NCBI GenBank assembly: GCA_030265395.1
Contig: JARFYF010000068.1
Coordinates: forward strand, 6,356,634 to 6,420,633
From: Rhina ancylostomus
Lineage: Eukaryota
DNA: 64,000 nucleotides
Direction: 5' to 3'
This document shows, piece after piece, positions 15,385 to 63,222 of this stretch. The translations under genes and the position numbers were made by a program. The number at the start of each line of letters is the position of its first letter. Within the stretch, counting starts at the first letter, position 1. The notes beneath the pieces are model-generated. The model saw only the letters and a list, made by a program, of their open reading frames with translations, did not search any database and had not been told where the DNA came from.

Positions 15385-15458
15385 TCAGTCAGCTCCTTCT
15401 GCCAAGTCGTAAATTTGTCCTGCTTCCGCGACTCTGTGAAAGTTGCCGAGTTTTATCA
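15385..15458 (-). CDS. Putative terminal coding exon: (V)IKLGNFHRVAEAGQIYDLAEGAD*
   Basis: Acceptor cattttcag; open in phase 1 to TGA at 15385-15387; an alternative phase-2 reading ends at TGA 15389-15391. Confidence 0.5.
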
Positions 15459-15852
15459 CTGAAAATGTTTTACAAACACAACAGTCTGAATAGACACCAA
15501 CATCCAATTGAAAGCAAATCAAACAAACATGACAACGGCGAAGATGCATGATTTGAAGTACAATCTCTGGGGGTATTTAATTATGCACGTAATAATAAAA
15601 ACTTTTCCTGCTGCTGTTCGGAAGGTGAAAACTTCGAAACTTTCATTGTCGGGAATAATTGAATATTTTTGGAAATGTAAAGTTTTATCACTTTTTTTTG
15701 TAAAGGATCAATCTCGTTTATGGTTAAAGTACGCAAAGAAAGGAAATAAATCAGCGTTCCTCAAAAATGTAAATTAGTTTTGCGAATTGCTGTTTGCAGA
15801 TTGAATATCATTGTAACGGTAATGTATCAGTCTTACTTTTTCGCCTCCTCAC

Positions 15853-15858
15853 CTTTTC
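15853..15858 (-). CDS. Putative 6-nt micro-exon GAAAAG (22 nt, to 15837, with the second donor)
   Basis: Strong acceptor ctttatttttcag; donors AAG|gtgagg and AAA|gtaaga. Confidence 0.5.
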
Positions 15859-16660
15859 CTGAAAAATAAAGTTATTATCGGTTGACTCATTGGGCAGAAT
15901 GGAACTCGTGATTCAGTGCTCAGGACTATTTTACAGTTGTCTATTGCTATAAATATAAAAACTCGGAGTAATGTTTCTGTTTGCTGTGTGAAAATGCCAG
16001 TGAGATAAACGCATTCGTCAACTGCAATGTTATTGAAAGGATGTGATACAGAAATTAACGGTAACCTGCAGCGCTAAGCGGGTGTCGCCAAGTCATCAAC
16101 TGCAATTGCAATCAACCAGCCCCCACGCCCGCCCTATAATGTTTTATTTGGTTATAATCGACTGGCAGCTTCATTGAAAACTGTCGTCTATATCCTGCCT
16201 GCGCATCAGGGCTTCGCTTAACTACATGCCCACAGGGCTGAGACAGCTGTCAATTTTACTGACTTCTTTCTCTGCTTCTGATTTCGCCATTGAGTTCAAC
16301 CGTGGAGCACAAACGGACTGAGGACAGGGACCTGGCTCGATCAGCGTGCGCCCCCTCAGCCAGTATCGCAGACCGATTTCTTTTTTTCTCTCTCTAAACA
16401 TAACCTAACTTATTCACAACGCCCATCTGTAGAGAGCTGACGATGAAAATTATTTCTATGTACCTTCAACTGATTTCTCTATTTCACTTCAAGGTTACAA
16501 CAGTATTACATCAGAGCGAATAAGAGAAGAGGCAGCCTGATTATGCTTAACGGTATGCATGGAGTCAAGAAGTAAATTAATTGATTTCTGACGTCCCATT
16601 CAATTGCTGAATAGAAAGATAGCTGCAGGAAATCTAGCTGAATAAACGAATCTGTCTTAC

Positions 16661-16681
16661 TTTTCAATCCTTCATCTTGAG
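16661..16681 (-). CDS. Micro-exon 21 nt: (A)QDEGLK
   Basis: cattctatcttccag|CTCAAGATGAAGGATTGAAAA|gtaaga. Confidence 0.55.
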
Positions 16682-17806
16682 CTGGAAGATAGAATGTTCA
16701 GAGAAAAATGTCTGATTAGACAATGTTCGTCCGGATGATAAGTTCTTAATCAGTCCTGAATTTAGTTTGGCCTCGGTAAAGGACGCAGTATTGATTGGTA
16801 ACGAAAGTACATTATTCTGTTCAGACCAGGGTATAACGTATCTCGATAGCCATTAATAGACGTTCAGTTCGTATTTCTTAAAACGTAGAAGTTTAACGTG
16901 CATAACGTTTATCTATGAAACAAATGCGCTGACGCCGTGTGCATTGTCATTATTGCCTTTGATTCCTTTCTGTGCATAAACCAGAAACGGTTATTTTTGC
17001 AGAATTTCTCCATTGGTGCCAATATGCAGGGTGATAAATCGGGGGAAATTTAGGGCTCACTAAGTTGCACAGTGATTAAACCAACTTTTATTCAAACATA
17101 TTCCATTATCTGCAGGGTCGCCCTCAAATCATTACAGCATGATTTACAGAAATATGTAATACCGAGAGCGCGACTGTGCCAGTAACCTCTCCCGAATTTT
17201 TATCCGCGATTGTGCTTCCACTGCAAGGGATCTTCCCAAAGGTGAGTGCGGGGCAGTTGTCCGGTTTGGTTGGTGTTGGGCTGGAAGGGTAGAGCCGTGC
17301 AACCTCTTGAAAGGCGTTAATCTGGGATTGAGTGGAGCATCCCGGCAGGCATGGCGAATGCGGGCGTTTGTTGGTGCTGGCAGCGACTTGTCCGTGTGCT
17401 TACAGACCGCCTGCTCTTGGTGGGTGCGATGNNNNNNNNNNNNNNNNNNNNNNNNNNNNNNNNNNNNNNNNNNNNNNNNNNNNNNNNNNNNNNNNNNNNN
17501 NNNNNNNNNNNNNNNNNNNGATTCAGATCCTGTATCTGAACTATTCGTGAACTGCGAGAGAGCATCTTCATTCGGAGTTAGGCTTTTATCTTCCAACTGG
17601 GCTGAATTGTGATGAGTTCCTATTGTACTTTGGTGGGAATTTCCCGGAGGAAAGGAAAACGCAGAAATAGCCGTTTCTTTCTAATTAAATGGCAGGGTTT
17701 TACTCAAATGAACACGAAAATGTGAGATACATGAATGAGAACGTTGCAGCTTTGTAGTCTGTGACATGAACATACGTGATCAGTAAAAAAGGGATTTGTT
17801 ACTTAC

Positions 17807-17833
17807 CGCAAATTTCACGAAGATAATTGAGCT
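17807..17833 (-). CDS. Micro-exon 27 nt: ELNYLREIC
   Basis: gtctttag|AGCTCAATTATCTTCGTGAAATTTGCG|gtaagt; resembles 28774-28800. Confidence 0.75.
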
Positions 17834-19029
17834 CTAAAGACGAATAGGCCGGAGATGAGTGATATTGATAGATTATGCAAATAACGTGACTTCATTGTTT
17901 CACAAAAGGTAAAACATTTACAAATGGATTAGCTTTCAATTGTGAGGACAAAGTGCAGAATCACAGAAGGGTTGCATCATTATGGGAGGACATCTGAGTC
18001 GCTGAGCTCGTACTGGTTTTATGTGAGTAAAATGAAATTCGTCCCACTCAACTGCCTTTTGTCCATCTCTCTAAACTGTTTTCTCTTAGATAATTACCTA
18101 GCATCCTTTTAGCACAACATTTTGATCTACATGCACCAACACTCCTAGCAGAACATTCTTACCACTGCTAGTGCATTGTCTTTGGTGTGTCACTTTTGAT
18201 TGTTTTTCCAATCAATTATTTGTCTCTCACTTCTTCAAGCCGCTGCCAAAGAGAATTTCTTTCTGCCTACGGGCCAGCCCTTCATAATTTTAAGTATCTT
18301 TGTCAATGTATTGTAGCTAGATCTTTCCCAGTCTGTTCCAACTACCCAGTCTTTTCACAGGACTACATTCCCTCATCACTGTCATCATCTCGGTAAAGCA
18401 GCATTCTCTCCAAGCTTACACAGATCTCTTAGAATCTGGCGCCCAGAAGCAAACATAGCCCCCCAGTTATGACTGTGCGGTTATTTCATAAAGACAGATC
18501 AACTGTTCGTGGTGGTGGCACCAAGCCCACATCCTACATGCTCCTTTCATAACCATTTCAATTAAATTAGTCCACGCTGGAAGATTCAGAGAACAATGGG
18601 CATATACCCACAGATATCTCTAATTCTGTGTCCTCTCAGTATTGTCGCATAAAGTTGAAGAGCATTTAAAAGTTTTCCTGCCACAATGTAACACTTCACA
18701 GTTCTCAACATTCATTTATCAGTATTAAACATGGCAATATCTTTGAGCGGTGGCATAGACAACAGATACACGTGCACAAGAATAATACAGCAGAGACCTG
18801 AATGCTGCACTACAAGGAGATAAAATCTCAGAGAAAAATAACACGGAAAAATAATTAATCTTATTTCCTTATCAAAACATCCTTTGTAAGCTTTATTGCA
18901 GATATTGTAAGTTTTTGTAGTTAACTACAACTTCAGTTTTTGTTCGTCAAACAATAAACACACTCTGTAAGCGCGAGCAAGTAGATCTGTAACAGTTAAC
19001 ATGCCATCCTGCTTAAATCTGTTGCAATC

Positions 19030-19245
19030 TTTGAATATTGTGTCAGGCCGCCCTTTGAATACTGTGTGCAGTTTTGAACGCTGCACAATCGGTAGGGCGT
19101 GATTGCGCTGGGTATGGTGTAGAGGAGATTCGCCGGAAATTTGCCTGGATTAGAGGAACCAAGGAGTTTGAGGCGTGACCTGACAGAAATATACAAGATT
19201 ACGAAGGGCGCATATATTGTCGATAGAATCTTTCCCCTATGATTT
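19030..19245 (+). mobile_element. CR1 LINE fragment
   Basis: GTCAGGCCGCCCTTTGAATACTGTGTGCAGTTTTGA (VRP..EYCVQF) and GACCTGACAGAAATATACAAGATT (DL.E.YKI). Confidence 0.7.
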
Positions 19246-20119
19246 TAGATGATCTTTGCGTGACAAAGTGACCCAGGGCGAATCTCACATGAACGGAATA
19301 CCTTGTTTGGTCCTTAAACTACATTTATTTGAATGGTGATATCGGACATTAATGTTACAGTCAAAATCCTGCATTCTGTGGCCGTGATATGGGTACAACA
19401 ATCACTACCAACCAAAATTATGGAGGAAATCTTAAAATATTTTGTGCGTCCCAGCAATGACTGCCAAAACATCATGAGTTGTTTTGCCTCGACTTTCATG
19501 ATGCTTTTTATTTTTTGATATACTGCGGAGACATGCACAGTGTGAAATGATTTCCGTCGCATGAAGTTCCCGTTGCAATCCAGTGAACACAATGGGAAAT
19601 GTCATGAATGATGTTTGCGTGCGTAAATTGTTTTTAACGGCAAGATATTCTTTAGCTGAAATGGAATGGACTATCCCCGCAGAATATGCATTTTTGTCGG
19701 CATGAAGTCCTGGTCTCTCGGATATCGAATACTTTTCGCAGGCTGAAACACATTCTCTTGCATTTCTCATTTAGGTACCCCGGAATGGATATATTTTTCA
19801 ACTAATTGTTCCGTTAGCTATTCACGAATTTATTATGAATTGTATTTGAACCTATATTTCCTGATTTGTATGTTACTCTCTCGAAAGCTTGACTGATCGA
19901 ACACAGACGACATTATGACCTCCCGCATCCAATTTCCAGATCTGGGAAATGCAGCGCGGCTGCGTGTTCCAGTGACAAGAAAAGAGTTTGAACGTCATTC
20001 ATTCATCGCTGAGTGTAGAAGCCAGTTCTATATTTTTCATTTAACGAATAATTGCAGTTCTTTTCTCAGTGCATAAGCCGTCGTTAAGACTATAATATCA
20101 CCACGATGAGGTACATTAC

Positions 20120-20146
20120 CTGACTCCTTTTCACGCAATTTTTCCT
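20120..20146 (-). CDS. Micro-exon 27 nt: EEKLREKES
   Basis: tattatcag|AGGAAAAATTGCGTGAAAAGGAGTCAG|gtaatg; EEQLKEKDA class. Confidence 0.8.
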
Positions 20147-21299
20147 CTGATAATAGATTAAATGTTAATTATTTATGTGGTTTTGTAACTTGCTTATTTG
20201 CAGAATCGAAACATACATAACCAACTATTTGTAAAAAGATTAAAATTTGCACAGGAATTTGGTTCTCCAAGAACTTCTTCAGTGTGCAAATTGACAGCTG
20301 TTTGTTTCCATTTCTTTCGATTTAAATGGTGTACCTTTCCTAGGTAATACTTTTTCTCCCTACGAATCTCCTATCTGGATGGATTCCTTGAAGACGTGTA
20401 TGTCGGCATTGGAGTTTCGATGGTGTTCCTTTCGTGTTTGTGAATTCCATGAGGAATAATAGTTGTTACTAGCGCACAATCTAAGTTGGTAAAGATAATA
20501 TTAGACATTATAAAAGTATGAAGATAAGCTGATTATTATGAAGATCATTGTCTATTGTCTATTATGTGACACTAGCCTTCAGTTGACAATAGGCTGTCTG
20601 TAATATTCAATGAGATAACGGATGCCAATAGAATGCGGCCTTTAACAGTCAGGCGTTGCTTTGCCTCTATATGCAATAGATCCACCTTTGCATATGCCAG
20701 TGAGTTCATAACTGATAGGCCCAATCCAGTTCAGTTGTTTCCCTTGCAGTTTGTGTCATTTTCCCTACAATAGGTTATGTCGAAATCTCTGAATAGAGGT
20801 ATGTCACGCTCTGAATTAATGGATCCGAATTGACGATAGACTTTGCAAGTGATGGGGTGAGGCTGGGAGGTGATCACAATGAATGAAATTGAAGTTGAAC
20901 GTTAGTACTGAGTGAAAGATGAAGCTTTGAGATATACTGTATATGTGAGATACGGGCTGGTGAAATACAGACAGTTCTCTCAAAATAGGGAAGATGAACG
21001 TGTTAAGATATTTGTGAATTTGAATATATAACTCTGAACTATGCTTTGTCAATGTCCGAGTCAGTAATTTAAGTTGAAATTCGTCTCGGAAATAATTGTT
21101 TGGATAACGTAATCAATATTAGTTTAGTCATACCTCTATGACGGACGAAGTAATTTCGAAATTATATTTTACTTGGTGAATTCATTTTTAATGCAACCAA
21201 ACAAGTCATTTAATGCCAATATTATCTTAAGATCACGCACAATACAATTATTTGTGGTACTTAACATGAATGTTTGATGAATTAAGTTTATAAATTAAC

Positions 21300-21335
21300 C
21301 TAGTTCCTCACGGATGTCTTCCATCTCCTTAAGAT
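21300..21335 (-). CDS. Micro-exon 36 nt: DLKEMEDIREEL (24 nt with internal donor)
   Basis: ttttgtttttttacag|ATCTTAAGGAGATGGAAGACATCCGTGAGGAACTAG|gttaat. Confidence 0.72.
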   Translation of the reverse strand: MLRRWKTSVRN

Positions 21336-22268
21336 CTGTAAAAAAACAAAACGAAAAGATTTGCAGTTCATTGAAGCTGCAGTTAGGGGTCACTCGTTTC
21401 CGCTCATTGGTTTCTGTTTCACACAAAAGTACCGCATGTTCCCGAACTGCGTGTGCATATTAACTACTGTGGACGGTGGAAGTGCAACATGATTTGAACA
21501 CACAGACACTCAGGCACCCAAGCAAGCACACGCACACGTTCGATGTGACTTTACATCTGTCTGATCAAGAATAACATTCGACCAGCTGAGTACGGATATT
21601 TCTGATTCATTACATCAATTCACCTCGATTTGTTCAGAATTAATATTCAATTATGCAACAAATTATTTCAATATGACAATATATATAATCTGATAAATGA
21701 TTGGCACACCTAATTAAAACATTTTACTTACTAATTTTCGAAACTGATAATGAAAGTTGGCCCGGAAGATAGAACAGAAAACAATAACGCACGGCTGATA
21801 ATGTCAGCGAAATATTCATAACGGGAAATATTCGAAAAATTAGGAGAATCAAAAAAGTGATCGGGAGTTATGATTTAACGAAGGTTCTTTGGGAAATCTA
21901 GTGTACAAAATTAACAGACGTGGAATGAAAAAAAAGAATGAGATTGGAAGATAAATAATTCCATGGAACATCGAGAGAATTGAGGCCGCTGTAATCAAAT
22001 GGTTATTCGACATTGTTCAATAAAATAAATGACAGGAATTGTGTATCGCTCCCTTTCATTTTTGTTAAATCTGTTGCGTCATCCGAACCCGGCGCCCCCA
22101 CCCCGTCCCAGTATTTCATGACTGTAAATCAAGAACTCTGAACATGTCAGTTTTAAACCTGTAGGAAATGACTTTGTCCAATTTGGTCAACTGAGATGTT
22201 AGAAAATTATACATCCAAAAAGATAACATAATTATTTATTAGTCGTAAACCTTTGTGCAAACACTCAC

Positions 22269-22295
22269 CACTGCTTTGACCACCTCCTTCTAGTT
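22269..22295 (-). CDS. Micro-exon 27 nt: ELEGGGQSS
   Basis: attgtttcag|AACTAGAAGGAGGTGGTCAAAGCAGTG|gtgagt. Confidence 0.75.
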
Positions 22296-23184
22296 CTGAA
22301 ACAATAATAATGATGACAGAAGCATCAAAAGAAAGCCGAAATTTCCAAGGGCATAAGATATACAAGGATTATTAAAAGCAAGTAACGTCGTGCAAAGAAG
22401 TGAAATAAATTCTGAATTACCAGACTCTCTCTGACGTAGTTTCCTCTCTGTTCCGAGAAATAAAAGGAGTGAAACTCTTTCCTACGCTGTTGAATTCACC
22501 GCCCGACGTCAACCTTTCCCAAATTGAAACATGATCAATTTCGGCTAAACCTCTTTTCGTTCGTCAGTTAAATAACCGCTTTCTCCTATACCTCCAAAAG
22601 CCTTTCATGCCCCAAAATACATCTATCTTCTTCTTAAACATATTCAACAATTTGGCCTTGGAGCTTTCTGTGGTGGCAAATTCCATAGATGCATTCGGTT
22701 TGGAGTGAACATATTCTCCTCAATTCAGTTTTGAATGACTCATCTCAGTTTATGTGCAGCACTTGCTGCGAGAGATTAGCAATCAAAGTACACTTAGGAT
22801 GTGCGAAACGTTGCAAACATATACCAAAATGTTAAATGGCATTTGCAGATCGCAATGTTTTTAATAGTAAAGATACAGTAGCAATCAACAAAGCGATTGA
22901 AACAAGATTTGGGAAACTATTCAAAATGGATGGCAGCGAATTTGATATAAACTATGCAGCGTGATTAATTTCTTCTGACAACAGACAAAAACACAGCACG
23001 TGGCTTGGAAAGATTGCCAATTTCCAAGTCAGCAATATTATTAAATTCACAATAACTAAAATTAAAACCAAGTATCTTGTGTTATAAATGTACTATACAT
23101 CATCTGACGTTAATTTAGTTTGCAAAAGTTTGCTGTAACTGTTTAAAAATCTAACATAGTAGTCGTGCCGTTTCATGCTCTTAC

Positions 23185-23220
23185 CCATATCACGGACTGC
23201 TTTCCTAAGTTTTTCCATTT
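23185..23220 (-). CDS. Micro-exon 36 nt: EMEKLRKAVRDM
   Basis: tttttttcag|AAATGGAAAAACTTAGGAAAGCAGTCCGTGATATGG|gtaaga. Confidence 0.8.
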
Positions 23221-25950
23221 CTGAAAAAAAGTTGTGTTATTGCAATACACTGTAGCATGTTCCCAATGTCTAACTGTGCATATTTCCAGTTTAGTCATAT
23301 TCCTTCCAGCTTCTACCCTGCTCATAGTGCCCTGAAACGGCTGGCTAACATTAAAATCGGAGTCATGTGAACCCTCTGAATTAGCTTTATACTGATCTTC
23401 TCTATCCGTAATTTATATGCAGCTTGATCTTTTATTCCATCCCTGCCATTTCTGGCATATTCTTTTTCTCCAGTAGTCAGTTTCACATGGTCGAATCAAT
23501 TAATATGGGAATAAGACAAAACTGACCATGTAATATGGTGTAGGCATTCAGCTATACAATTTATTCACTACCTGATTTTATTTTTCAGATTACTAATTGC
23601 CCCTTGCGCTGGAAGGAAGCATTGGTGTCACGTCCAGGTGCAATAAACGAGCCTACCATTGAGCTATGTGAGTTTTTTCTGATTACACAAGCTTTTGCTT
23701 CTTTTTCCAAATTGCGCATGAACAGGATCACAAATCTGGTAGAGCGTGATTTCTTGATTATTGCAGGAATCCGATTTACAGTTCTACTGTGTCTAGCGGG
23801 ACAGAAATTGAGTTGTTTTGCACTCTGAGTCTATAATGCATTTTATCCTCTGTCCCATATAATGGACAGCAAAATGACTATCGATTAATTACTGGGAAAT
23901 AAAAAGCAGACATTTGTGAAAGAGATAGGGCAGTTGTGATATGCCATTTTCAGATAGTGAGAAGCATACGCCAGAACAGGGAATAAAAATATGAGAGGCA
24001 GGTGTTTAACAGAACACAAACTGTACACTCACCAGTTTCTTTTCCACATTGATTTTCAGGGAAGAAAAAGAACATTTGTGTTAGGACAGAAAGAGGAGCC
24101 TTCTTAATTATTGTAAGGTCAAATCTTGGAGTGCAATGCTTTCAGTTACATGCTATTGCCGATCATTAGGTTCTGGTTTCCGATGTGTGAATTCTCCTAG
24201 TTTATGTTTTGCACTTAAGGTTCAGAACTTCCCACTTGCTGCCAAGGTCAAAGTAAAAAATATAATTGGTCAAATGGATTGGGCAGAACAATGTCGGTCC
24301 AGCAATTTATATTCGTTTCGGGATATAAATAAAACAACGTTATATCTGTGTATTAAAGAGAACGTAATTGTGGTTTAGAAAGTTGCAAAACTACGAACAA
24401 ATAGCGCTTAGAGGAAAAAAGCACAACGCATGGGCTGTAGTTCTGCAAAATTAGTCCAAACTTCTTAACCAGGTATATTTCACCAAACTGCATTAATCTG
24501 TCACTCTGTTTCATTTAGGCAGTAAGTTTGGAATATGAAGAGTCTCTGAAAGACAGTTTCTGCAGGTAGTTTTGCACATTGTAGCCATTGTGCATCAGTG
24601 GAGGTCGAGGTTAAATCTTAAAGTGTTGGATTGCGTGTGGATAAAGGGCTTATTTGCTTAAAAATGCCCTTGGACACATTGCGGTGTGCAGAGTGTGCAA
24701 GACCGACCTTCAGATTGCACATTTTCGAAATATTTTATGTCTTGCTCCGAGTCAATTATTGCCCACAATGCGAAGTTAACGCAGCCGAAGATGTACTGAT
24801 GTTAGACTTAATATAGGAATCAGTTACTCTCCCTCTGTAGGTGGGTCTTGCTCGAGGCCAATGTAATCTATCAGCCTCATCTTCAGTGAACTTTATTTGA
24901 TGTTGCATGCACAAATAGTTTGGAGCGGGCACGTGTGGCACTCACTGTCCATGCAGAATTTGTCAATACATATGTGAACTTTCCTTTTCAAATTCTTGAT
25001 CATTGTAGTTGGATTTCGGCCGTTTGGCTGGAAATGCTGTATGCAGGAATGTATGATATATTGGCGTTTATACAGTTTCTAAAATTGAATATCATCAACA
25101 TTGTTTCTAAAATCACGTGCATAATATGGAACAGGAAGGTGTTTTTGTGGTTGTAAAGACATAGGAGGAGGATAAAAATTCTCTGGTCGGTTCATCGTGG
25201 TGGTTATCACAGAACAAATACCACTTTGCATTTGGCCGTAGTGTGCTGTGTTTTACCGTAAGCGTATTACACATTTTTCTGCATCTGCATTAAATTAAAA
25301 TTGGAACCTTCGTTTGATGGTAATACAGGAATGAGAAATACGCCGGACCATTATTTAATCGCTCAAGTTAGAGTTTTACCCTGTTGCTCATAATCAGATA
25401 TAATTAGCTGGAATTACGGGGCATACCTGAAACGTGCCATTGCATGGATATGTCACAATTTTGCTTTATCAATGTGCTGTAATGATCTCCCAGTTTTGGA
25501 ACCTATTCAAAGGTTACCCAGGAGTATTTTTGGACAAGATTGTTTACATTTGTTTATTATCACAGAAAAGATAAAAATTATAATTACGCAAATATATTAT
25601 TCGATTGGGAATAGGACATGAAACCGAAAATATATTTACTTTTCTGTGCAAGTTTCGTTCTGTCGTCCAAAAGTATGTGACGCTTTCTGATAAGGCGAAC
25701 TTGGATTGTACAGAATGCCTTGATAAACCACGTGTTAGATTAGTTGAGAGACAGTAACATGAATGTGAGTTTGATTATAGAATAAGCCCCTTGACTTCAT
25801 GTTGTCTCATCGCTAACATGATCTGGAATGCAGACCCATTAAAGTAACCACTGTCACATCTTCTGAGATGGGTTTCCACCTCTTATATTTAATGAGATTC
25901 TGGACATACAGTATGGTCGGTTCCAACAATTGAGCAATATTTTATCTTAC

Positions 25951-25986
25951 CATTTTCTTGCAAAGTAGTTTTAAGTGCCATAATTT
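25951..25986 (-). CDS. Micro-exon 36 nt: EIMALKTTLQEN
   Basis: ctgcttccag|AAATTATGGCACTTAAAACTACTTTGCAAGAAAATG|gtaaga. Confidence 0.8.
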
Positions 25987-26529
25987 CTGGAAGCAGATGT
26001 CAATCAGACTCTATTTTAGCCTGAAGGATATATTTCACATACAACTGGCATAAGTATATTTTAATCATGGAGGAAATGAACCTAAATATGTATTTGGCTT
26101 CGTTCTTTCCAACTGATGCATTTGCAATCACTGGCATTTTTTTGCTGTTGTCGTCACACAGTTTATGAGGGAACTAGTTAAGAAAGCGCCGCAAGTACAA
26201 ACTGAGGTGGAAACAATATCTTCAAAGCGGCCTGTGTAGAATAATGAAAAATAAAGGGCCGGATACGCTCGATACGTCATCCCCCTCCGACCCGATTAAA
26301 CCATGATCAGTACGTTTGAGCTTACTTTTTCCGCCTCACTGGAGCAGAGGTCGAAGGGTGGGAGACGGTGTGAAGGGGCTGGGAGACGCAGCTGCCGCAT
26401 AAACAGTGACCATGTCCTCGGCGGCACATCCTGTAAATGTTCCACTGGACCGCTCTGATGGCCTTTTAGCAGCTTATTGCCACTATGTCCCTATCTGTTG
26501 TTTGTAAATATCCTTGACAATGAAAGACA

Positions 26530-27070
26530 CGATAGAGCTGCTCCTTCACAGCTTCAGACACCTGGGTTTAATCCTGACTTCTGGTGTTGTTGGTGCGGAG
26601 TTTTCACATTCTCCCTGTGACCGTGTGACCATGAAACATGCTCCTGTTTCCTCACAAGTCTCCAAGACGCGCGAGTGGTGGGTTAATTGGCCATTTAAAA
26701 TTGACCCTCATGTGCCGGTAAGTGGTAGAGTCTGCCCCGAGTTAATTAGAACGATGGGAGAATCGCTTGTGGGAAAAACAGCTCAGTTTTGTAGCAGTTT
26801 GCACTGCGGCTTCACAGCGCCACACAGCCTCAGTTGATCCCAACCTTGGCAGTTGTCTGTGTGGAGTTTCCCGCTCTGACCGCATGTGTATCTCCAGGTG
26901 CTGAAGTTCCCTCCCACATGCCAAAGACCTTCTGGTTGGATAAGTGCCTTCTCCAAGTTTGCGGTAGGACATTGGGGGGTTGATGGGGATTAGAGAAGGA
27001 GAATGGGATTCGGTATTTGATGGTCAGTGTGGACGCGGTTGGACAACAGTCTTGTTTCCTTGTGCATAAC
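26530..27070 (+). mobile_element. Two adjacent degraded V-SINE copies
   Basis: Two CTGC(T/G)(C/G)CTTCACAGC...GGAGTTT...CACA...CCAA(A)GAC cores at about 26538-26700 and 26805-27060. Confidence 0.65.
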
Positions 27071-27086
27071 GCACTGACGTATTTAC

Positions 27087-48815: not shown

Positions 48816-48817
<2 letters not shown>

Positions 48818-48848
<31 letters not shown>

Positions 48849-51821: not shown

Positions 51822-51924
51822 CTATAAATGGAAATTTAGGATAAACAAGGAAGTTACAGTTACGTAACTATTTATTTTTCCGATTCACAGATAATTACAT
51901 TTAGTTGCTTTTCTCGCGATTTTC

Positions 51925-52053
51925 CTAAATTTAGTTTAATTTTTTAAACTAAATTTTTAAACTATATTTTTAAAATTTTAACTTTAAACTAAACTTTTTA
52001 AACTCAATTTTTAAAACAAAATTTTTAAACTATTTTAAAAAAAATTAATAAAA
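51925..52053. repeat. AT-rich low-complexity repeat of TTTTTAAACT-like units
   Basis: Repeated tttttaaact/aaatttt motifs. Confidence 0.8.
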
Positions 52054-55000
52054 CCGTGACATTTCGTGTACTTCATATATCTGTCTTTTCTTTTGATAGC
52101 ATGATTACTGGATGTATTATTTTGCTCTTTTGTGCGACGCTCTAGGACAGAACCTTCCCTTCTCTAGCAAGTTCTGGGTTCAAGGCCGATTTCGGCATCC
52201 TGCTGCTTAAATTGCTGTCTTTTCATTGCGATGTTAAATGTATTTTCCCTGCCGATTCGATGTAAATGGCAACATATCTCTATCTGAGCAATATAAACAC
52301 CAATTTCTCGATGGCGTGCCCTAAAGTTTTCACAATACATACTAAAGTATTTTTTAAGATAACGAATGTGATGGAATTTACTTACAAATCAGCCTCATGA
52401 CATTGGTGAAAGTCATTAATAGCAGTATTGTCCCCCATAGCTGATTGCCTTCTCGTGTCCCCTCTGAACAACCATACAGTCGTCACAAAAATGAACTGCT
52501 TATCTGGATATGCGATCAGTTTCGACACAGATTATCGGTTTTGTTTCTTGGAAAGGATGAATGTGCTTCAAAGTAAACTGAACATTTTGTAGTGCAGGTC
52601 TGTGGTAGCGAATTATGCTGTGTAAATTTAAACAATTTTCGTATTTCAATCATTTATCTTGCTGTGCAAACTTTTAATTCCTGGAAACATTATTTGTATG
52701 CAGGTGGAGGGTATGATTAAAATCACCTACATAGCATCCCAAACGATTATGTTGTTACATGCACCACCTCTAACCAACCACTTCTTACACTTAGCTGATG
52801 TAAGACTGTGCGCAACTTTATTGATTTTCAGGATAACTTTGTGGATGATTTTCCTGATAAATTCTGCTGAGGAAACTGATTGCTTAAACATTGAATGACC
52901 CATTTGTGGGTCTTGAGAGCTTTGTGAAACTCTTCGTGCAGGGAAGGTGAGGGCACTGCAACAATTGGATGGTTGAATCTATACCATGGAATTACGCGGT
53001 AGAGCCTAATTACACAGATACTTATTGGTGGGAAAGGGAATGTTTAATATATTTTACTGACTGGTTATTTTTTGCTTTTTCAAGGTTTTCTCAAGAAGAT
53101 CCTGAATGATACTTTGAAACTGCACGGCATGTAGTACTTTGGACAGAGTGCTGGCGAGTGGAATTATCTTTAAAAATTATTTCTAGGCCAACATGGAAAA
53201 TGTCGCCTGCATGTGTCATCCAAGTCACACGCCATCATGATGTGTCCCTTATGTCCAGGTGGATCTAAATCATAGGACTCTCTCCTCAACAACAAGGTGG
53301 AATTTCCTGCACTAAAGAAAACGGTGGTGGTTCAGGAAGTCAGCTCGGCTACATTTTAACACGAACAATCAAGCATGGGCAACATATGTTCGCCTCAGTA
53401 TCTATTCCCAGATGTCGAAAAATGAATGAATTGTAACAAATCTGTCTGTCATACAAATATCACTATTTCGGAGAGCAGAACTGCAATCCATTACAGGCAG
53501 CTGAGCGATTAATCTGTGATTATCTCAGCTACTGCGAGAGCACTGCTCCCTATGCATATGTAAAATTATTTTCAGCATAACTTAAATAATAATCTTTATA
53601 GAAGCATGTCCTTAGAGCATAAGAGAGTGTTCCTGAAATAAATGCTGCGCGAGTTAATACTTACTACATTTGTCACGAAGTCTTCTAAGTTCTTAGGCGC
53701 ACAAAAAGAGGTAATTAAAAAGAGACAAACGAGCATTGAGAAAACTAGCGAGGAACATATAAACGGACAAAAAGTATTTGCTTTCACCATATAGATAGGT
53801 ATGGAGAATTTCCAGGGAACGTTGCCTTTCTATAGAGAATGGCACTGTGTCATTTATCATTTCCCTATTCCTTGTAACACTGCTGCTTGTGAGTTAAAAT
53901 TCTGCTCAGCATCCACTAATATTTTCCCTTGTCATGGGAGGACAGTTTAACCGTGCCGACAGTAAAATGAGTCAAGNNNNNNNNNNNNNNNNNNNNNNNN
54001 NNNNNNNNNNNNNNNNNNNNNNNNNNNNNNNNNNNNNNNNNNNNNNNNNNNNNNNNNNNNNNNNNNNNNNNNNNNNNNNNNNNNNNNNNNNNNNNNNNNN
54101 NNNNNNNNNNNNNNNNNNNNNNNNNNNNNNNNNNNNNNNNNNNNNNNNNNNNNNNNNNNNNNNNNNNNNNNNNNNNNNNNNNNNNNNNNNNNNNNNNNNN
54201 NNNNNNNNNNNNNNNNNNNNNNNNNNNNNNNNNNNNNNNNNNNNNNNNNNNNNNNNNNNNNNNNNNNNNNNNNNNNNNNNNNNNNNNNNNNNNNNNNNNN
54301 NNNNNNNNNNNNNNNNNNNNNNNNNNNNNNNNNNNNNNNNNNNNNNNNNNNNNNNNNNNNNNNNNNNNNNNNNNNNNNNNNNNNNNNNNNNNNNNNNNNN
54401 NNNNNNNNNNNNNNNNNNNNNNNNNNNNNNNNNNNNNNNNNNNNNNNNNNNNNNNNNNNNNNNNNNNNNNNNNNNNNNNNNNNNNNNNNNNNNNNNNNNN
54501 NNNNNNNNNNNNCTGCTCAGTTTGACCACGCAGATCGCTCCTCGTCTTCAACGTCAATGGACGAGTCAGGGAGCGGAGCCTAGTAATTGCTTCAGTCAGT
54601 TTGATGAAGCTCCCACTTCACTGAATTTAATTCTTTTTTCTGACGTTGTCAGAAAAGGCAGCAAAGAAACCATTCTAAGTTGGACGAAAGTATTGCTATT
54701 ACATATTTTCGAAACATTTAATCAAGGTTAAGCGAATCTATCTCACTAAGATCTGAAACGATAAACTTATGCCAATGCTCTTGATAACGTGTTCAGAAAA
54801 GTGGAAGACAGATGGTCGAACTGAATGTGGTTCCGTAATATTTACGATTTCCCAACTGAAGTTATTTCAATATACATGCAGTCGTCGTGCTTGTGATTTG
54901 CAAGATGGAAGTTCACAGCTCACCATATTGTGAACGAGTTGCCCTTGTGACTAACCAAATGAAAATATAAAAAAACGTTCAGATTATACGTAAATATTAG

Positions 55001-55361
55001 TATTTTTAGACCACTATAGAAAGTTCATTAAATCTTTAGAACATAAGCAGAGAAAATTAAGTTTGAGTCGTTGTATATCAGATGGCTACTAATCCAAGGG
55101 TAAAATATTGCAATGCTGGAAATAACGAATACGAACAGAAAGTCACGGAAATACTCATCAGGGAAGGAGCTTTAGGACACGCTGTATTAGTATGTTCTCT
55201 GGTACTGATGAAAATTACAATCAAAATATATAGAAGCATTAATGCATCTGTATACATTAATTATGTTTATTCGGTTGGGTTTAATTTAACGCATTGATAG
55301 AGGAAATATATGGTTTTCTTTCGCAGAAAAATCGTACACCATTTCATATTCCCTTTCTGAC

Positions 55362-55397
55362 CTGCATCATTTAGCAGTTTTTCTAATCGTTTTATTT
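55362..55397 (-). CDS. Micro-exon 36 nt: EIKRLEKLLNDA
   Basis: tttcgttccag|AAATAAAACGATTAGAAAAACTGCTAAATGATGCAG|gtcaga. Confidence 0.85.
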
Positions 55398-55840
55398 CTG
55401 GAACGAAACATGGTAATTCATTGTATATTGTAACATGGTGAAATTTAATTTCTATAAACCGTGCACGTTCGCCATTCTCTTGCTATTTCCTGATGGAATT
55501 TTCTTCTGATCCCATCACTTAGTCGACTTATTAGTGAGTTATGTAGCCTCAAACTTGAAATTTCCTGTTTCTATACAATTGCTTCCAATGTGACGCTGCT
55601 AGTTTGTCGTGTGTGTTTTCTGTACTTTCGCCTGTAATACAAACGCTTTCACTTCGATATAAGTGTTGATGGTAAATCATACAATTTAACAAGGGAAATC
55701 ATTGAATTTCATTTAGCTATCTTTGCTATTTCTGTCGATGTGACGAAAATATGTTTCAGTACAGAATGGTGCGCGGACCCTTTGAGTGCTTCATGCGCTT
55801 CATTCACAAGTCCTGCAATTCATGACATTTTTATGGTTAC

Positions 55841-55867
55841 CTGCATCCTTCTCTTTCAGTTGTTCAT
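55841..55867 (-). CDS. Micro-exon 27 nt: DEQLKEKDA
   Basis: gacttgcag|ATGAACAACTGAAAGAGAAGGATGCAG|gtaacc. Confidence 0.85.
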
Positions 55868-58110
55868 CTGCAAGTCATAATATTTCAATTAGCGCTTCAT
55901 TCGCTTATATATAGTACTTCCTGGAAGTATATTATTTTATACCATATCCTTCGTTTTGATTATTAATTATTTGGAAAGAAACACCTCACTGCATGTTTCA
56001 GTAAGTTGACAGATCATGGAACAATGATACAATGATGTATCGTAAAATGGGAAGGTAAGGCTTATCGGCCTCAAGTTTATAATGGAAACAAAGAAAGATT
56101 AGCAAGCTTGCAAAGACCACAGAACTCTGCGCAGTAAGTTCAGCTTTTTAAAACTAGCAGACAGCGTATTCTTCTCCTGTTAGATGGAATTGTGCAAAAT
56201 AAATGATTCACGTTTCAACATATCTACCAAGACTTAAAGCCACCATTGAAATACGTAAAACACATTTTAACCTTAAAACATACATTTTTGTTCTGGACAG
56301 CAACAGCAAACTAGAACAATTACTTTCACAGCGACAACGATCTGAAATCAAAATTGCACATCTATCAATGCAATATTTCATAAATTATGCCAACTCCAGG
56401 ATGATACATTTTTATCTGGCGTTGTATTCCTGCCTCATACACTCAGTGGAGCAATGGGAAAGCTAAATCAACAAGATGAGAATGAAGAGAGTGTTTCAAA
56501 TATTGTCCATTAGTATCTTTGACGCATGCCTCTGTTAATCTGTTCGCACGATTGCAACATCATATAAAGAGAGAGGAATCGTCTTAGCTAGTGAATCAAA
56601 CAAATGATATCATATTTACGAAAGGAGAAAATTTAATCGCGTCCGGAAGGAATGCTCATCTTCACACCTTTCTATTGAAATTTAAACTCTCAGTCCGAGC
56701 ACCACAACTGTTACACGAAAGATTACAGCGAGTAAGGATTATGTCTTGCATTATGTGCCCCGAAATTGTTAATAGAGCATTATCTTCCTTAGTTTACTAA
56801 TTTTGGCAAAGGTCATGTCAAGGAAGATAACAGAGAAAGTGATCTGATGATATTGATTCAAATCAATATGAATTGATTTATAATTTCATGGTACTTTCAA
56901 AGGGCAATTCTGTCCTGTGGAAATGAGGGCTTGATATTTTATTCGTACATTTCCTGGTATGGTTGATTAACATGCTTTCAGTAACTTCTGTGCAAGTTTT
57001 TTCTTTGCTAATCTCAGAAATGAATTACAGCAATAGAGTATAACGATAACAAGACCATTAATTTCAACGTTATCGAGCGGAGCAAAGACCGCGATCTATT
57101 AATGATATGAATGCTAGGTCCCTGCAATTACTCAAAACTGCCATTAATTTCTGAAATCTCGAACAAAAGAGGCTAGCGTTGTCAATTGGAAGTAGCTGTC
57201 AAATAGGTGAAGAATTGCGAAATATTCTGTTCTCCCAATCATCAGCCTTTCGCCATTGCATCCAAGATATTAACGCCACTTTCACTTAATGACATTGAAG
57301 CGAGTAATGAGAAATACTGTGTATGGTTATTGCGCATAACTTTTGAACGTGTGAAATAGAACTTAAGTTGAAATTCCTGCGCAAATAGATATAAAGATAC
57401 ATTTACAATACTGGGAAATTATTTGTTTGGAAACCGTCACGCAGCCTATTAAGTTTGTTGATATAGTTCTCATTCAGGATACAGATACTCCCCAGGTTAC
57501 AGCAAGGTTCCATTCCTGTGAACTGTTCGTGAGTCGAACAGTTTGCAAGTCGGAAATGCAACCGCAAACTGAGTCCCGCGAGGCAGAAGATGCCTGCAGC
57601 CTTGCAGCATTCGGAAAATCCATCCCGCTGGTCTTCTAACAGCCCGTTCGTATCATGCACTGTACATGAATCGGGCGTCCGTAAACTGAGGAGGACCTGT
57701 ATTTCTTCATGCACAGATTTACGAAAGACTCCCAGGAGGGTCTTGATTTCCACAATACTCCTAATCTTCAACAAACCTTCAACAAAACTTCTCATGTCAG
57801 TTCTGACTCCTGCATTATTCTGACTTACTATATATGTTTGGTTTACGAAACAGAGAGTTTAACGCAACGTCTAGAAAACTGTTGGAGGTAAATTGAAATG
57901 GAAAAAGATTGAGTGTGATATTGTTAAGACGTTTGTGATTATTCTAGAAGTGCAAATTACACGGCCACTTTTAACGAGTGGAAACATTTGCCAGGAGAAT
58001 GGTGACTAATATTTAGCTGAAGGGCTATAAGGGTGCATAGTTTTGAAAAACAATTCAATGTCTTCCCATCGATATTATAAAATTTAGAAAGCTGACAACA
58101 TTCTTCTTAC

Positions 58111-58134
58111 CTTCCGATGCTGGTCCAGATTCTT
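58111..58134 (-). CDS. Micro-exon 24 nt: EESGPASE
   Basis: gacttgcag|AAGAATCTGGACCAGCATCGGAAG|gtaaga. Confidence 0.8.
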
Positions 58135-61100
58135 CTGCAAGTCATGATTGAAGATCGATAAAATTAGATAGATCGTGTATTTTACTTTCAGCACCGAAAA
58201 CATAATTGGTATCACTAGAGGATAGTGAGAAGTAAGTGTATTTCATTCCAGAGGAAAAAGAAAACTAGACACCTCCACTTAGCTCTCCAAGGGAGACCAA
58301 TTGCCATATTAACTGAATGATTAAGGAAAAGAGCCATTTTATAGAGTGGAGTTTTCTTCAGTTTACTTTTTGTTCAACTGCAAACTTCTAAACGTCAGTT
58401 GCATCCAGAAAAGCAATAGTGCGCAGTCTCTGCCCTGCCTAATGCAGACAGAACCGATGAATGCGACCTTGAACTTTTGGCGCTCTTAATATAGCACAGC
58501 TGAAGCAGTATCTTAGTCTGTTGCAGTGAAGAGTTGCCTAATTCCAAAAGGCGACCACGTATGTATTTGGAAATTGGAACGAGATATCAAGAGGAGTTGG
58601 TAATATTTTACTTGCAGTTATGTCGCTAGCGAACAAATTACTCTCCCTCTTCCCCCCACTGGCGGTTTGATGAGAGCTCGTGGAATTCGAGTTTGTTCTT
58701 CTGCCTGTAATATGTACCCTAATACTGGATTTCATTAAGGAGCTGTTAAGTGCATTTTGTCAAATATATTTTTTTTGTCTACTCTCATTTTGTCTTTGTA
58801 ATTTATAAAGTTAGAAAGTGGAAACATTGATTTACTGATTGGACATACATATTGCATTGATGTTTTTCTCTTAACTTTGGACTTCCAGTTTTCTGGTGCA
58901 GAGCATAATTAACTGATGTCACATTCTGTAGCTGTTTACTTGTAACAAGCGCAGTAGATCGGAGGATATTCCAATTTTATTTGCCTTGTTGAAAAAAAGT
59001 GATAGCAACTTGTATTTTAAAATTACCATTGAAGACAATGGAACATAAATCAAATCGTGCAGCATATATTTGGCTTGTGAAAGATCCAGAATCTACTTTA
59101 TGAATCAAGGACACGTAAAATTAATGGTCCACTGATTGACATTTATTCATAGAACAGAAACGTTCGATGACGACCCATTAGAGCCTCTGGACTCAAGTAT
59201 TTGCAGTAGCTTCCAAATGCATTAAGATAGATAAGATTCCATGAAGTCTGATGTTACTCTCTACATTCTGGGCGTCAGTTATCTTCTGGCAAATGTATAG
59301 GAAGAAAACATCAGGAAAATCCCCATGAAATTCCGATTTTCATTCTTTCTAAATATATGCACTACATTAAGGGAAGTCTTCGTGCTTTGCCATGTTCATT
59401 TTGGGTTTAAGCCAAACAACATTGCTGGTAAATAAATTAACACATAAAAACTGCCATTTCTCCTTGAAGATGACCGTAAAATGCTCCTCTTATTGTAACA
59501 GTGAAGCTTCAGCAGCGAAAATTTTAGTCACTCTGATAACCAAAAACAATTTCAAAGTTGAGGCGATGAAGGCATATTGCAACGCCAAATGGAGCCTGCT
59601 TTACATTATCAGACAACGTTTAGATGATTATTTTGAACAAGACCTAGTTCTATTTCAAAATTGTTAAGTGGAATTTTAAATGGACATGTTATCTGAACAA
59701 ACCAGTCACTGAATTAACCATGATTAATCTTGCTGTCATATTCAAACAGGAAGGCAAACACATGGAGGAAAACTCAGGAAACGTGCATGCCGGTTGCAAA
59801 AAAGCTCACGTTCTTCGATTATATACATTAATTTACATTTTTCATTCATATCAGTTTCGAAGTTTCATTACAATCTTGAACAGAAATGCAAGTAACATGT
59901 TGAATTGCTTACTACGTTTTTCACGAAGTCTTCTGAGTTCTAATGGAGTGCAACATTGTTCAAAATTTCAATAAACAGCTAAAAAGAATCCTAATTAATG
60001 AGAGAAGCAAAGGCACTCACGCATTGTATTGCATCGCATGTGTCATGCTTATGACACAAAACGAAATACGCGCAATGATAATCGCAGGATTCAGAACATC
60101 AGTAACATCTAAAACAACCTTTAAAAGTATGAAAGCAAGTAGATCAATCAATACCTGCGGCTGTTGTAATGCAAATGTGAAATTTTAAACATTTAAGTCA
60201 GGGGCAAAACTATTTTTCTCCACTGGTTCATTTCCACTATTTACCGGCACATCTGACTGAAATGCTGGTCTTCATCTCAACGTCTGAATTGTGTTGATTG
60301 TAGGAAATGAACTGCAAGTAAAACGCTGTTCAATTTGTCATAGACTTACTTCCAAGGTAATAGTACTTTGTAGGTATCATATATTACCTCTAAGTATCTA
60401 ATATTGTCCCTATATATTGCCTCTAAAGTTCTAGAGAAGTTCATACAGCTAGCAAAATGATGTAGTTCCTTAGTACATTCATGGCATCCATCTAAACAAG
60501 AGTCGAATATGCCGACATGAAATTGTACCAGCGAGCTGTCCTTTGCTGAATGAGTTTATTGTTCCAGTTTTAAAGGGAGAATTCCAAATATTGTCTTCAC
60601 ACAAAGTTAATGTCTATCTTCAAAAGAAAGTTCCAACAATGAATTGCCATTCACTATTGTTTAAAACAATGGAATTCAAAGGGCTGTAAATGCTCCCGAG
60701 TAAGTAAAACTTTTCTGCGCGTCTCATAATCGATACACAAAAGCAGACAGCATCTCATTCCAGGAATTCGAACCCCGAGTCAGTTTCAAAAGATGCAAAT
60801 ACCATGTTATAGTACACCTACACGTTATGTCAGTTAAAATGTCCTCTCTACATCGATCGCTTCTTACACCGAAAATCTGGAACGTGATATACCCTGTGTG
60901 CTATCCAGTTCATGTAATTTTAGGTTGTTGGGATATATTAAAATTCTTCCCATGCATGCTATCGTTATATGCTTTGCTGCTTAAAAGACAACCAATTGCA
61001 TATTCTGTTCATATACATCCCTGCAGATGACGTGGCAAATATACTTCGAAGGCATCATACTCCACAATCTAATGCAGTCCAGTTATCCCATGGCCTCCGA

Positions 61101-61322
61101 TAGGCAGTGTGGGGATGTTTGTCAGATTGTTGGTGATCTTTACTGCAGAAAAGTTGCAGAGGAATTTGAGCTGTAAGTAACATCCTTTGGGCGGAGAACG
61201 CATATACTCTCCATTCTCCATACAAATTTGCGACTTAATGTCAGCGAATCATACGGACATGGAACCCCTTGAATTATTCCCTGAGTTATATTATTTTGAT
61301 TTTTACAGAAATGTTCAGATAC

Positions 61323-61349
61323 CTGCATCCTTTTCTTTCAGTTGTTCTT
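61323..61349 (-). CDS. Micro-exon 27 nt: EEQLKEKDA
   Basis: tcatgcag|AAGAACAACTGAAAGAAAAGGATGCAG|gtatct. Confidence 0.85.
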
Positions 61350-62724
61350 CTGCATGATTGAAAATGCATGCGAATGTTAAGTTGCCGGTAAGGCGAATCA
61401 TTTGATATTTGCTTAGCTTGTTGGTCTCGTTGCATTTTATCAGAAGAAAAGGTGCAATCTGGACTTTCTTTTTTAAAGAGGTCTTTCAATACCAACAGAA
61501 ATGTAAAGGCAATCGTGTTACTCTTTTTTTCGACATGGCTCTTGAAGTAGCCCAGCTACCCGTAAATTCACCTGGCTCATTTGGTCTCCAGCTTCATAAT
61601 ATCATCTAATGCTGGTTAGAAGTTTTCAGATTAAGTGTTCATAAATTTATGCACAGGGACCCTCACTTCTATTGGAGTGAAAGACACAATATTTGCATAA
61701 TATGTCCTCCGTTACTTCATAAAACAGCGTATATGATTCGTATTAAGTTGAGAATGTATTAATTATGTGCAACATGCAAACAGCTTTACATATAATGTTC
61801 GACATCTTTCCTTAAATTCACTTTCCTTAATATTTAAGCACTGGTTAAGTTACAAAATTTACAGTTCCCTTTTGCAGGTATGATACCGGATAATCTATAT
61901 TAAGATACACATAGTTCGACTAACACAACAAATTAAAGCTCTGTTGAATGTTTATGAAAAATATTATGGCATATCTCATGCAGGATCAAGCCTAAGATTA
62001 TCATTGTAGGCCGGTTATCTGTGCATAGTTACAAGCAGCGGAGGATTTAACGTTATTGTCTGATTCAGAGTTCTACTTCCTTATCATGAGATTTTAGGCT
62101 GTTGCGATATGAACAAATATATCCCGACTAAGGGAGACCAGCGCCTGGCAGAAATCCTCGTTATCATTCAGTCGTTGGCCAGTCTTTCACGGTAATACTA
62201 TGGACATGTCTGGGTCCTGTCTGCCGAGGACACAGTATCAATTAATGCTTTCCGCGTTTCTCTTTTCCTTTTCTCTTATTGTTATGTTTCATAACTGTTA
62301 TGCAGTAGCAGCAAAGCCAGGATATTGATGGATGCCATACTATAACGACTTGTGCTTTCTCTGACCATTTATTGGTGTAGATGTGCTAGGTTAAAAGCTT
62401 AAATATGCGCAGAAAAAGATAATATACGTTATTGGCCAAGACATCTTTCATACATTTCTTTCGCTGGCATTGATAAAAGATGAGATTTTTACCACATGGA
62501 AAACAAAATGCAAGTAAAGAACTTACTGCTGTGTACTAAAAATTATACCAACTCAAGTCCTTTCATGTACCTATCAGACTGGAGGAAATTTAGTCGGGAT
62601 GTTTAAGGAATAACTGTTTTACAACTAGCAATGTCAACTATCCGCACATCAGTTGAAGGTAAAAACTTCACTAGTTTTTAGGGAAGTGTTCAAAATATTA
62701 GGTAATACCTTTGGGGTTGAGAGT

Positions 62725-62892
62725 CATAGGTTAATGGAGTAATGCATCATGGAAACAGGGCCTTCGGCTAACTCGGCCATGCTGACCATGGTGCCCACCA
62801 AGCTAGTTCCATTTGTCCCGTTTGGCTCATACCCATCTGAAACCCTCCATTCCATGTACTTATCCAAGTGTCTTTTAAATGTTGTTATTGTT
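62725..62892 (-). mobile_element. CR1 LINE extreme 3' end
   Basis: TFKRHLDKYMEWRVSDGY and GGAAACAGGGCCTTCGGC tail. Confidence 0.85.
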
Positions 62893-63195
62893 ATTTTATT
62901 AACTAAGTTAAACACTTTCTAATAGTAGGCAATGGTGCCTTGTGTTTTTGGTATCACGATAATTTATGGACGTGAGTTTTTATCCAGCTTCTGCCAGTAG
63001 AAGACGATTTTCCAAAACTTGGCATGAACTTCAGAGAGGGCAGAGTGGAGGCTGAAAGCGGCTGTTGAAAGCAAGTTGCCAAGTCAGTTGTTTGTTCGAA
63101 ATGTAATTTTCTCAATAAATATTTAAGTAGGTCCATCAATTTTTGCAATGTGAAAATAGTCAGCGCTGGACAAATCGAAGAAATGCTTTGCTCAC

Positions 63196-63222
63196 CATAT
63201 TGGTCCCTAGCTACTCTCGCAT
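63196..63222 (-). CDS. Micro-exon 27 nt: xARVARDQY (most 5' exon visible)
   Basis: ttttttttcaaattctag|ATGCGAGAGTAGCTAGGGACCAATATG|gtgagc. Confidence 0.8.

Follow-up and report, generated by a model that had tools for sequence, protein, structure and literature searches.

A micro-exon array upstream of NRM

The DNA under study, called the window, is a 64,000-nucleotide stretch of the Rhina ancylostomus genome (scaffold C68, positions 6,356,634 to 6,420,633). It contains one end of a long array of micro-exons in the MHC (major histocompatibility complex) region, next to a gene that we take to be NRM (nurim). The micro-exons of the window form the 3' part of what is called gene B; farther upstream on the same strand lies gene A, a neighbour that bears a B30.2 domain. 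Coordinates of 64,000 or less refer to the window, and higher ones carry its count on along C68 (scaffold position minus 6,356,633); those given for scaffold C53 are scaffold positions.

A splice-signal scan that was blind to the peptides of an initial annotation found 16 strong micro-exon candidates on the minus strand of the window, 12 of them divisible by 3, and 2 on the plus strand, neither divisible by 3. The final set consists of 29 phase 1-1 exons, bounded by AG and GT and 825 nt in total, all of which join without a stop. The initial annotation had listed 24 stop-free minus-strand exons of this phase; when the five that it missed (starting at 59939, 54950, 53691, 40637, and 22447) are set aside, exactly these 24 exons of 21-36 nt remain, totalling 690 nt and open throughout, so that its exon list is borne out and extended. 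Acceptors are weak (-1.6 to -2.6) at three of the exons, 59939, 55867, and 50956. The features of gene B are as follows, with window exons given as first base/length in nt.

16661..63222, minus strand: 3' portion of gene B as found by splice-signal scans, with 29 micro-exons of phase 1-1 (825 nt), seven of which chain onto Narcine XP_069775425.1
Exons 1-10: 63222/27, 61349/27, 59939/27, 58134/24, 55867/27, 55397/36, 54950/27, 53691/27, 51821/24, 50956/33
Exons 11-20: 49804/27, 44748/33, 42968/27, 40637/27, 37900/24, 37083/27, 34674/27, 33091/36, 31618/27, 28800/27
Exons 21-29: 27113/27, 25986/36, 23220/36, 22447/27, 22295/27, 21335/36, 20146/27, 17833/27, 16681/21
31592..63222, minus strand: duplicated exon blocks, copies 70-93% identical, flanking introns at random level
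15833..15858, minus strand: preferred candidate for the last coding exon, predicted to read into a stop codon (acceptor score 3.2)
15385..15398, minus strand: alternative candidate last exon, with a weak acceptor (score -2.6)
63223..64000, minus strand: intron running out of the window
64,000 to ~495 kb, minus strand: rest of gene B, at least 203 further micro-exons, with a 9.6-kb gap at 253,477-263,122
494,951 or 495,047, minus strand: candidate start codon of gene B

The 3' end of gene B appears unsettled, because the acceptor near 15398, where the initial annotation had placed the lower end (15385/15398), is poor, while the candidate at 15858, which has the better acceptor, would read into a stop codon; the former is kept as an alternative and the latter is preferred. 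In 11 paralogous exon pairs of the window, the exons are 70-93% identical and their flanks align at 0.44-0.59, compared with 0.51 +/- 0.04 for random intron pieces. Differences within these pairs fall 9, 13, and 28 times at codon positions 1, 2, and 3, respectively. A tight pattern for one class of window exon has four matches in the genome, all within the window.

Put initially at 48 kb, the array goes on past that length by about 430 kb within gene B, or by about 500 kb if gene A is included. In the 600 kb examined upstream of the window, it reaches ~566 kb, with gene B extending to ~495 kb and gene A beyond it. Gene B alone has at least 232 micro-exons, which amount to 6,726 nt and ~2,240 residues spread over ~480 kb. 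This is a lower bound because a Narcine protein (described below) pointed to six exons overlooked by the trained model; they lie in four of the six intervals searched, and two of these exons are 8/8 identical. As a chance control over the whole array, an untrained scorer gave 193 candidates on the minus strand, 163 of them divisible by 3, and 58 on the plus strand, 23 of them divisible by 3. The phase-1 frame is open in 156 of these 163 minus-strand candidates, compared with 81 and 90 for the two remaining frames. A locus-trained model retains 260 exons (genes A and B) on the minus strand and 2 on the plus strand, a count that is partly circular since the model was trained on the same locus, and it retains no minus-strand exon in the 97 kb beyond the array.

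Among these 260 exons, 146 are of 27 nt, 79 of 36 nt, 19 of 24 nt, and 12 of 18 nt; the commonest neighbouring lengths are 36-27, 27-27, and 27-36, and the median intron is 1,558 nt. Joined together, they encode 2,515 residues without a stop, with 17% Glu, 14% Lys, 14% Leu, and 0.3% Pro. At 311,113-315,429 on the minus strand, exons of 36 and 27 nt have recently been duplicated in tandem, at 94% identity. The ratio of observed to expected CpG is 0.67-0.71 over genes A and B (16,000-566,000), 0.18 in the RBM4-like gene that lies upstream of gene A, and 0.23 at 600-664 kb; the lack of CpG depletion in the giant gene bodies may reflect little germ-line methylation.

Between ~487 and 520 kb there is a 32-kb exon-poor interval that contains, on the strand of the array, the B30.2 exon of gene A.

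514,936-566,246, minus strand: gene A, at least 32 micro-exons, start codon at 566,228
From 515,183, minus strand: B30.2 exon of gene A, running into a 320-base gap

This is the sole B30.2 in 664 kb; it matches a local profile with an independent E-value (iE) of 2.5e-16, and Pfam PRY (2e-4) and SPRY (4e-3), both under the cut-off. As the initial annotation had stated, no B30.2 lies between the array and NRM. With the gene A B30.2 as query, one match was found among 10 candidates, the 372-residue Narcine bancroftii protein XP_069775385.1, which is 78% identical and which begins at the Met picked beforehand at 566,228, with the first micro-exon. Nineteen Rhina exons chain onto the long isoform of this ortholog, with 114 of 162 residues identical and 14 of 18 junctions one residue apart. 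Its five RefSeq isoforms vary by whole micro-exons or by start site; RefSeq isoform models of this kind customarily rest on RNA reads. A plus-strand open frame of 122 codons with a strong acceptor (518,209-518,575) lies antisense within the last intron of gene A; it has no Pfam match over the cut-off and no usable Atlas match.

A probable segmented coiled coil, conserved in a ray and two catsharks

The initial annotation had proposed a long coiled coil encoded by symmetric micro-exons in the style of BG and butyrophilin genes, and the joined product of genes A and B (260 exons) agrees with this. Its hydrophobic period peaks at 3.5 residues with a power of 0.52; when the exon order is shuffled, the power falls to 0.29 +/- 0.03, and none of 200 shuffles attains the observed value. 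Because the natural order preserves the heptad register, splicing in array order is favoured. A single-sequence AlphaFold2 model of Narcine XP_069775425.1 shows five long helices interrupted by short breaks (mean pLDDT, the predicted local accuracy score, 68.5). Both the heptad period and the long helices of a two-stranded coiled-coil rod are thus present. With the established rise of 0.15 nm per residue, the gene B rod would be ~330 nm long if continuous. A 27-nt exon and a 36-nt exon together encode 21 residues, which is three heptads, and therefore duplication or skipping of exons would alter the length of the rod while the frame is kept.

Relatives were sought with HMMER among 1.84 billion representatives, using the coil of gene A, not the spliced gene B protein, as query. 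Five proteins were found at E <=0.001, all from elasmobranchs. A separate search for long relatives of this coil (663-2000 residues) found none among 2,941 candidates, which is weak evidence. Onto Narcine XP_069775425.1, 42 of 264 exons chain in order, with 261 of 366 residues identical (71%) and 36 of 41 junctions one residue apart, and the chain scores 1002, compared with 35-59 in 10 shuffles. Seven of these are window exons, although which of the duplicates is the true ortholog is uncertain. Onto Scyliorhinus torazame XP_072329362.1, 32 exons chain, with 174 of 286 residues identical. These two proteins, the former named 'golgin A6-like 22' and the latter uncharacterized, together with LOC119975528 (Scyliorhinus, uncharacterized), XP_069775384-390, and XP_038672306-310, are orthologs or close paralogs of the 3' quarter of gene B or of gene A; they are partial models with automatic names only, and their genomic context is taken here from published gene lists. 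The array has exons of one phase in an open frame, keeps the heptad register, and is conserved in a ray and two catsharks.

A second giant gene was found on another scaffold.

C53:36,203,763-36,714,172, minus strand: second giant gene, ~170 micro-exons of 27/36 nt over 510 kb, B30.2 end split by a small gap

The region matches the B30.2 of the gene A ortholog at 42%, compared with 72% for gene A itself and at most 36% for 65 of the 67 matches. The array here is an independent test of the exon model trained on C68: applied unchanged, the model found 111 minus-strand and 2 plus-strand exons over the first 320 kb, then 59 and 2 over the following 200 kb, for totals of 170 and 4. The exons mostly alternate between 27 and 36 nt and end in the B30.2. 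In 200 kb beyond the array there are 1 and 3 weak exon matches and no immunoglobulin (Ig) exon. Farther upstream, at 36.83-36.91 Mb, lie exons that resemble what we take to be a GTPase-like gene (minus strand) and a leucine-rich, NLR-like gene (plus strand).

Taken together, these results place in the window the 3' end of an MHC array of ~480 kb and at least 232 exons. The array probably makes up a single gene, whose product would be a segmented coiled-coil rod in the cytosol, more than 2,200 residues long, that lacks Ig, transmembrane (TM), and B30.2 domains and acts as a dimeric spacer or scaffold. Several points weigh against this reading. Gene B is known here from genomic DNA, and no transcript of Rhina ancylostomus has been seen. 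The RefSeq orthologs span only its 3' quarter (~128-26 kb) and lend no support to the other three quarters, on the 5' side, or to the final seven exons of the window. Bases called N make up 7.8% of the gene B span, including the 9.6-kb internal gap, and another 3,415 lie between genes A and B, just upstream of gene B. The AlphaFold2 model of the Narcine protein has a pTM (its overall fold score) of only 0.21. Codon changes in the 11 window pairs, which were preselected at >=70% identity, are non-synonymous in 26 cases and synonymous in 17. To these is added the circularity of the 260-exon count.

A catshark gene list also bears on the point: it gives seven separate large same-strand loci, over 3.9 Mb, upstream of NRM, one of which is homolog P0017 (PMC10751288). 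This counts against a single unit and favours a reading in which gene B consists of at least two genes in tandem, the 9.6-kb gap possibly hiding a promoter and a B30.2 exon, and in which the window gene has ~100-130 exons. In agreement with such a division, the exons from ~170 to 65 kb look by eye like gene A module by module, and the largest exon-free interval in gene B (23 kb) includes the gap. However, seven intervals examined show no internal start, stop, or change in CpG; no second close copy of the gene A B30.2 is present on C68 or the unplaced contigs (by the matches given above); and fragmented models are expected for micro-exon genes. Division into tandem genes is therefore judged unlikely, and it would be compatible with most of what is proposed for the single gene. 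Some weak splice sites might suggest a decaying pseudogene or a chance pattern, but this is barely credible given the open frame, the heptad register, the 71% identity to the ray ortholog, and the conservation of duplicates that is confined to exons.

The search for a receptor head

The initial annotation had read the array as the cytoplasmic tail of a BG-like receptor whose Ig and TM exons would lie farther upstream. In the 664 kb that extend up to and past the next gene (7.7% N), there is no strict Ig motif on the minus strand, no match to IgV or IgC profiles (best iE 1.7), and no signal exon; between 15 and 577 kb, none of six Ig-sized minus-strand candidates is Ig-like, and no credible TM exon is present. 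As a positive control, the exon scanner recovered 6 of 8 IgV exons, one IgC exon, and TM exons in five Ig loci of C68. A genome-wide V-set search, weak when taken alone, placed none of its 150 scored matches (846 candidates) at C68 6.3-7.0 Mb. The BG-receptor reading is thus not supported, since no Ig, TM, or signal exon was found in the 664 kb.

Several candidates were considered and rejected. A hydrophobic stretch at 334.8 kb is read as low-complexity intron sequence that ends in a micro-exon, and the other TM-like candidate on the minus strand as intron read-through. The hydrophobic start of Narcine isoform X7 is read as an intron extension, because an identical micro-exon follows it in the Rhina genome. 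An RRM exon of the RBM4-like gene was also considered for the array's 5' end, but this gene carries a zinc-knuckle exon and a stop of its own.

The related proteins are headless as well. Across 11 of them in RefSeq, the best 19-residue hydropathy is <=1.34, and in the five that were scanned Pfam finds nothing but PRY/SPRY, apart from two weak unrelated matches, with no RING or B-box. The gene A orthologs in two species (ray and catshark) and the C53 gene lack Ig and TM domains, and the orthologs lack a RING. A BG-like type I membrane protein whose signal, IgV, and TM exons fall in assembly gaps or far upstream is consequently very improbable. In its favour are the BG-like exon style, the MHC linkage, and the gaps upstream of gene B, namely 2.85 kb at 496.5-499.4 kb plus smaller ones; both edges of the 2.85-kb gap sit in a high-copy repeat, and contigs from one sequencing run of unknown kind fail to span it. 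Against it are the negative searches, made with a scanner that found most of the control IgV exons, the presence of gene A directly upstream on the same strand, and the headless state of its orthologs and of the C53 gene. A further 509 N bases lie upstream of gene A.

Chicken BG genes, like gene B, are MHC-linked and have a long heptad tail of many tiny exons without B30.2. Their tails are described as having 13-36 exons of 21 or 24 nt behind an IgV and a TM (PMC4046983), whereas gene B has at least 232, mostly of 27 or 36 nt, and lacks the single extracellular IgV, the signal peptide, and the TM. Butyrophilins resemble gene A and the C53 gene in having heptad micro-exons followed by a C-terminal B30.2, which gene B lacks, and butyrophilin-like genes lie on the scaffold of genes A and B. 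They differ from the headless family by their IgV-IgC ectodomain and TM, and their coil is shorter than the headless one, by as much as two orders of magnitude. Gene B probably acts as a free BG tail would, but it lacks the domains that define BG, butyrophilin, and TRIM proteins.

TSBP1 (C6orf10) and triadin also have many tiny exons, and TSBP1 is MHC-linked; each has a TM segment. That gene B is an ortholog or analog of either, unrelated to B30.2 proteins, would fit the many tiny phase-1 exons and the charged product, but is highly improbable. Gene B has no TM segment and no visible sequence link to them, its exon classes are common to it and the B30.2-bearing gene A, and the five elasmobranch proteins found with the gene A coil do not include TSBP1.

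Locus, ancestry, and significance

The array is flanked by two genes.

5049..5203, minus strand: first coding exon of the presumed NRM, the downstream neighbour, assigned by the sawfish gene order (no Pfam match)
577,700-583,184, minus strand: RBM4-like gene upstream of gene A, encoding two RRMs plus a zinc knuckle, with 63-66% identity to shark proteins

Intron 1 of NRM contains a 52-bp minisatellite of 8 copies (874-1308) and a 47/48-bp repeat (4817-4947) beside an N gap. Farther downstream, C68:6,276,634-6,356,633 holds NRM exon 2 and what we take to be a RING-finger gene, RPS5 (plus strand), and a phostensin-like gene; these names and that of NRM were assumed and then matched to the order in the sawfish MHC. 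The MHC linkage that was initially proposed holds up by this order and by the class I genes, since 11 of 14 class I matches are on C68, ~3 Mb from the array. The scaffold also carries many B30.2 exons; a genome-wide PRY search missed the divergent B30.2 of both gene A and the C53 gene, and its count is therefore a lower bound.

In other species the locus was read from published gene lists. The sawfish list for chromosome 34 has the same gene order, followed by 962 kb without a gene, a small uncharacterized locus, and an RBM4B-like gene, and the white shark list is empty for 1.83 Mb after NRM (PMC10751288 supplement). The initial annotation had predicted that a gene of this type would be missed, and these two published lists are indeed blank. 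The main text of PMC10751288 does not contain the words butyrophilin, nurim, RBM4, or coiled. The gene is missing from two annotations yet present in catshark and Narcine, which suggests narrow tissue expression. No description of the family was found in the literature searched (most subscription papers fell outside the search), although partial RefSeq models exist.

Butyrophilin-like genes are present on C68 at 1.20-1.24, 1.56-1.58, and 1.70-1.72 Mb, with an IgV, a few tail exons, and a B30.2, plus IgC and TM in one. Between ectodomain and B30.2, each locus has two to six phase-1 exons of 21/27 nt. IgV-TM genes without micro-exon tails, which we take to be NCR3-like, lie at 4.15-4.19 and 4.85-4.87 Mb. 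The sawfish MHC chromosome list includes NCR3-like genes (PMC10751288), and MHC-linked butyrophilins have been reported in cartilaginous fish (PMC12841164).

A butyrophilin-type ancestry of the headless family is likely because of this exon style. The initially proposed butyrophilin link is now based on the B30.2-bearing paralog and the exon style, not on an Ig domain. Among solved structures, BTN3 is the best match to the gene A B30.2 (1e-26), and TRIM21 follows (4e-21). A B30.2 tree of 17 rows, from which 9 of 20 fetched domains were omitted (a stop in the envelope, or too short), places the three headless domains together (100/98) on a long branch, and in it butyrophilins and TRIMs are not separated. 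Two points count against this ancestry: the tree ties the headless domains to neither group, and the butyrophilin tails on C68 are without the 36-nt exon class.

The tree is also compatible with an origin from a TRIM that lost its RING and B-box, in which case the B30.2 members might serve as antiviral sensors, with gene B as a decoy that has no ligase or as a lattice spacer. The C-IV TRIMs (TRIM21, TRIM39, A33-like) share with the paralogs a soluble coil plus a B30.2, which is the TRIM C-terminal half; many B30.2 exons of C68 have a RING or B-box upstream, and RefSeq uses the names 'A33-like' and 'TRIM39-like'. However, TRIM coils are encoded by few larger exons, while the coil of the paralogs is made of micro-exons, and micro-exon heptads before a B30.2 occur in the butyrophilin-like genes of this genome. 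Moreover, the RING and B-box that precede the coil in a TRIM are missing from the orthologs, and BTN3 gives the best scores in the structural database. A TRIM origin is accordingly improbable.

From the preferred ancestry a scheme can be drawn. A butyrophilin-type gene would have shed its ectodomain, leaving the intracellular half, heptads in micro-exons and a B30.2, whose coil then expanded; the B30.2 would later have disappeared from gene B, as it has from chicken BG. The length of the rod would be retuned, with the frame kept, by duplication of exons, which is seen at 311-315 kb and in the window, and by skipping, which is seen in the gene A RefSeq isoforms. By analogy, BG tails vary in length via gain, loss, and skipping of exons, and the chicken zipper protein, itself a BG tail, is reported to regulate the interaction between actin and myosin (PMC4046983, PMC5043582, PMC8813856). 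The rod may pair either with a second copy of itself or with gene A's paralogous coil, and paired rods, like the zipper protein, might link B30.2 binding tips to the cytoskeleton or to membranes in a restricted tissue.

Combining these elements, it can tentatively be proposed, at somewhat under even chances, that this is an undescribed elasmobranch family whose NRM-adjacent member is a single unit of 230-270 micro-exons, fills a 1-4 Mb MHC 'desert', and encodes a tunable rod of ~300 nm that partners B30.2 paralogs, so that a tail of the BG/butyrophilin kind has become its own protein. If true, the NRM-adjacent gene would be among the most exon-rich vertebrate genes, for which the 363 exons of titin are the record. 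An architecture of hundreds of frame-preserving 27/36-nt exons is an extreme that was not found in the literature searched. The role of BG tails, and whether orphan B30.2 domains bind them, is posed as an open question in PMC8813856; as tail-only and tail-plus-B30.2 genes lie side by side here, that question becomes testable at this locus. If the same array fills the matching intervals, the blanks of 962 kb in sawfish and 1.83 Mb in white shark would be coding rather than desert. The locus also illustrates how annotation misses large genes of cartilaginous fish.

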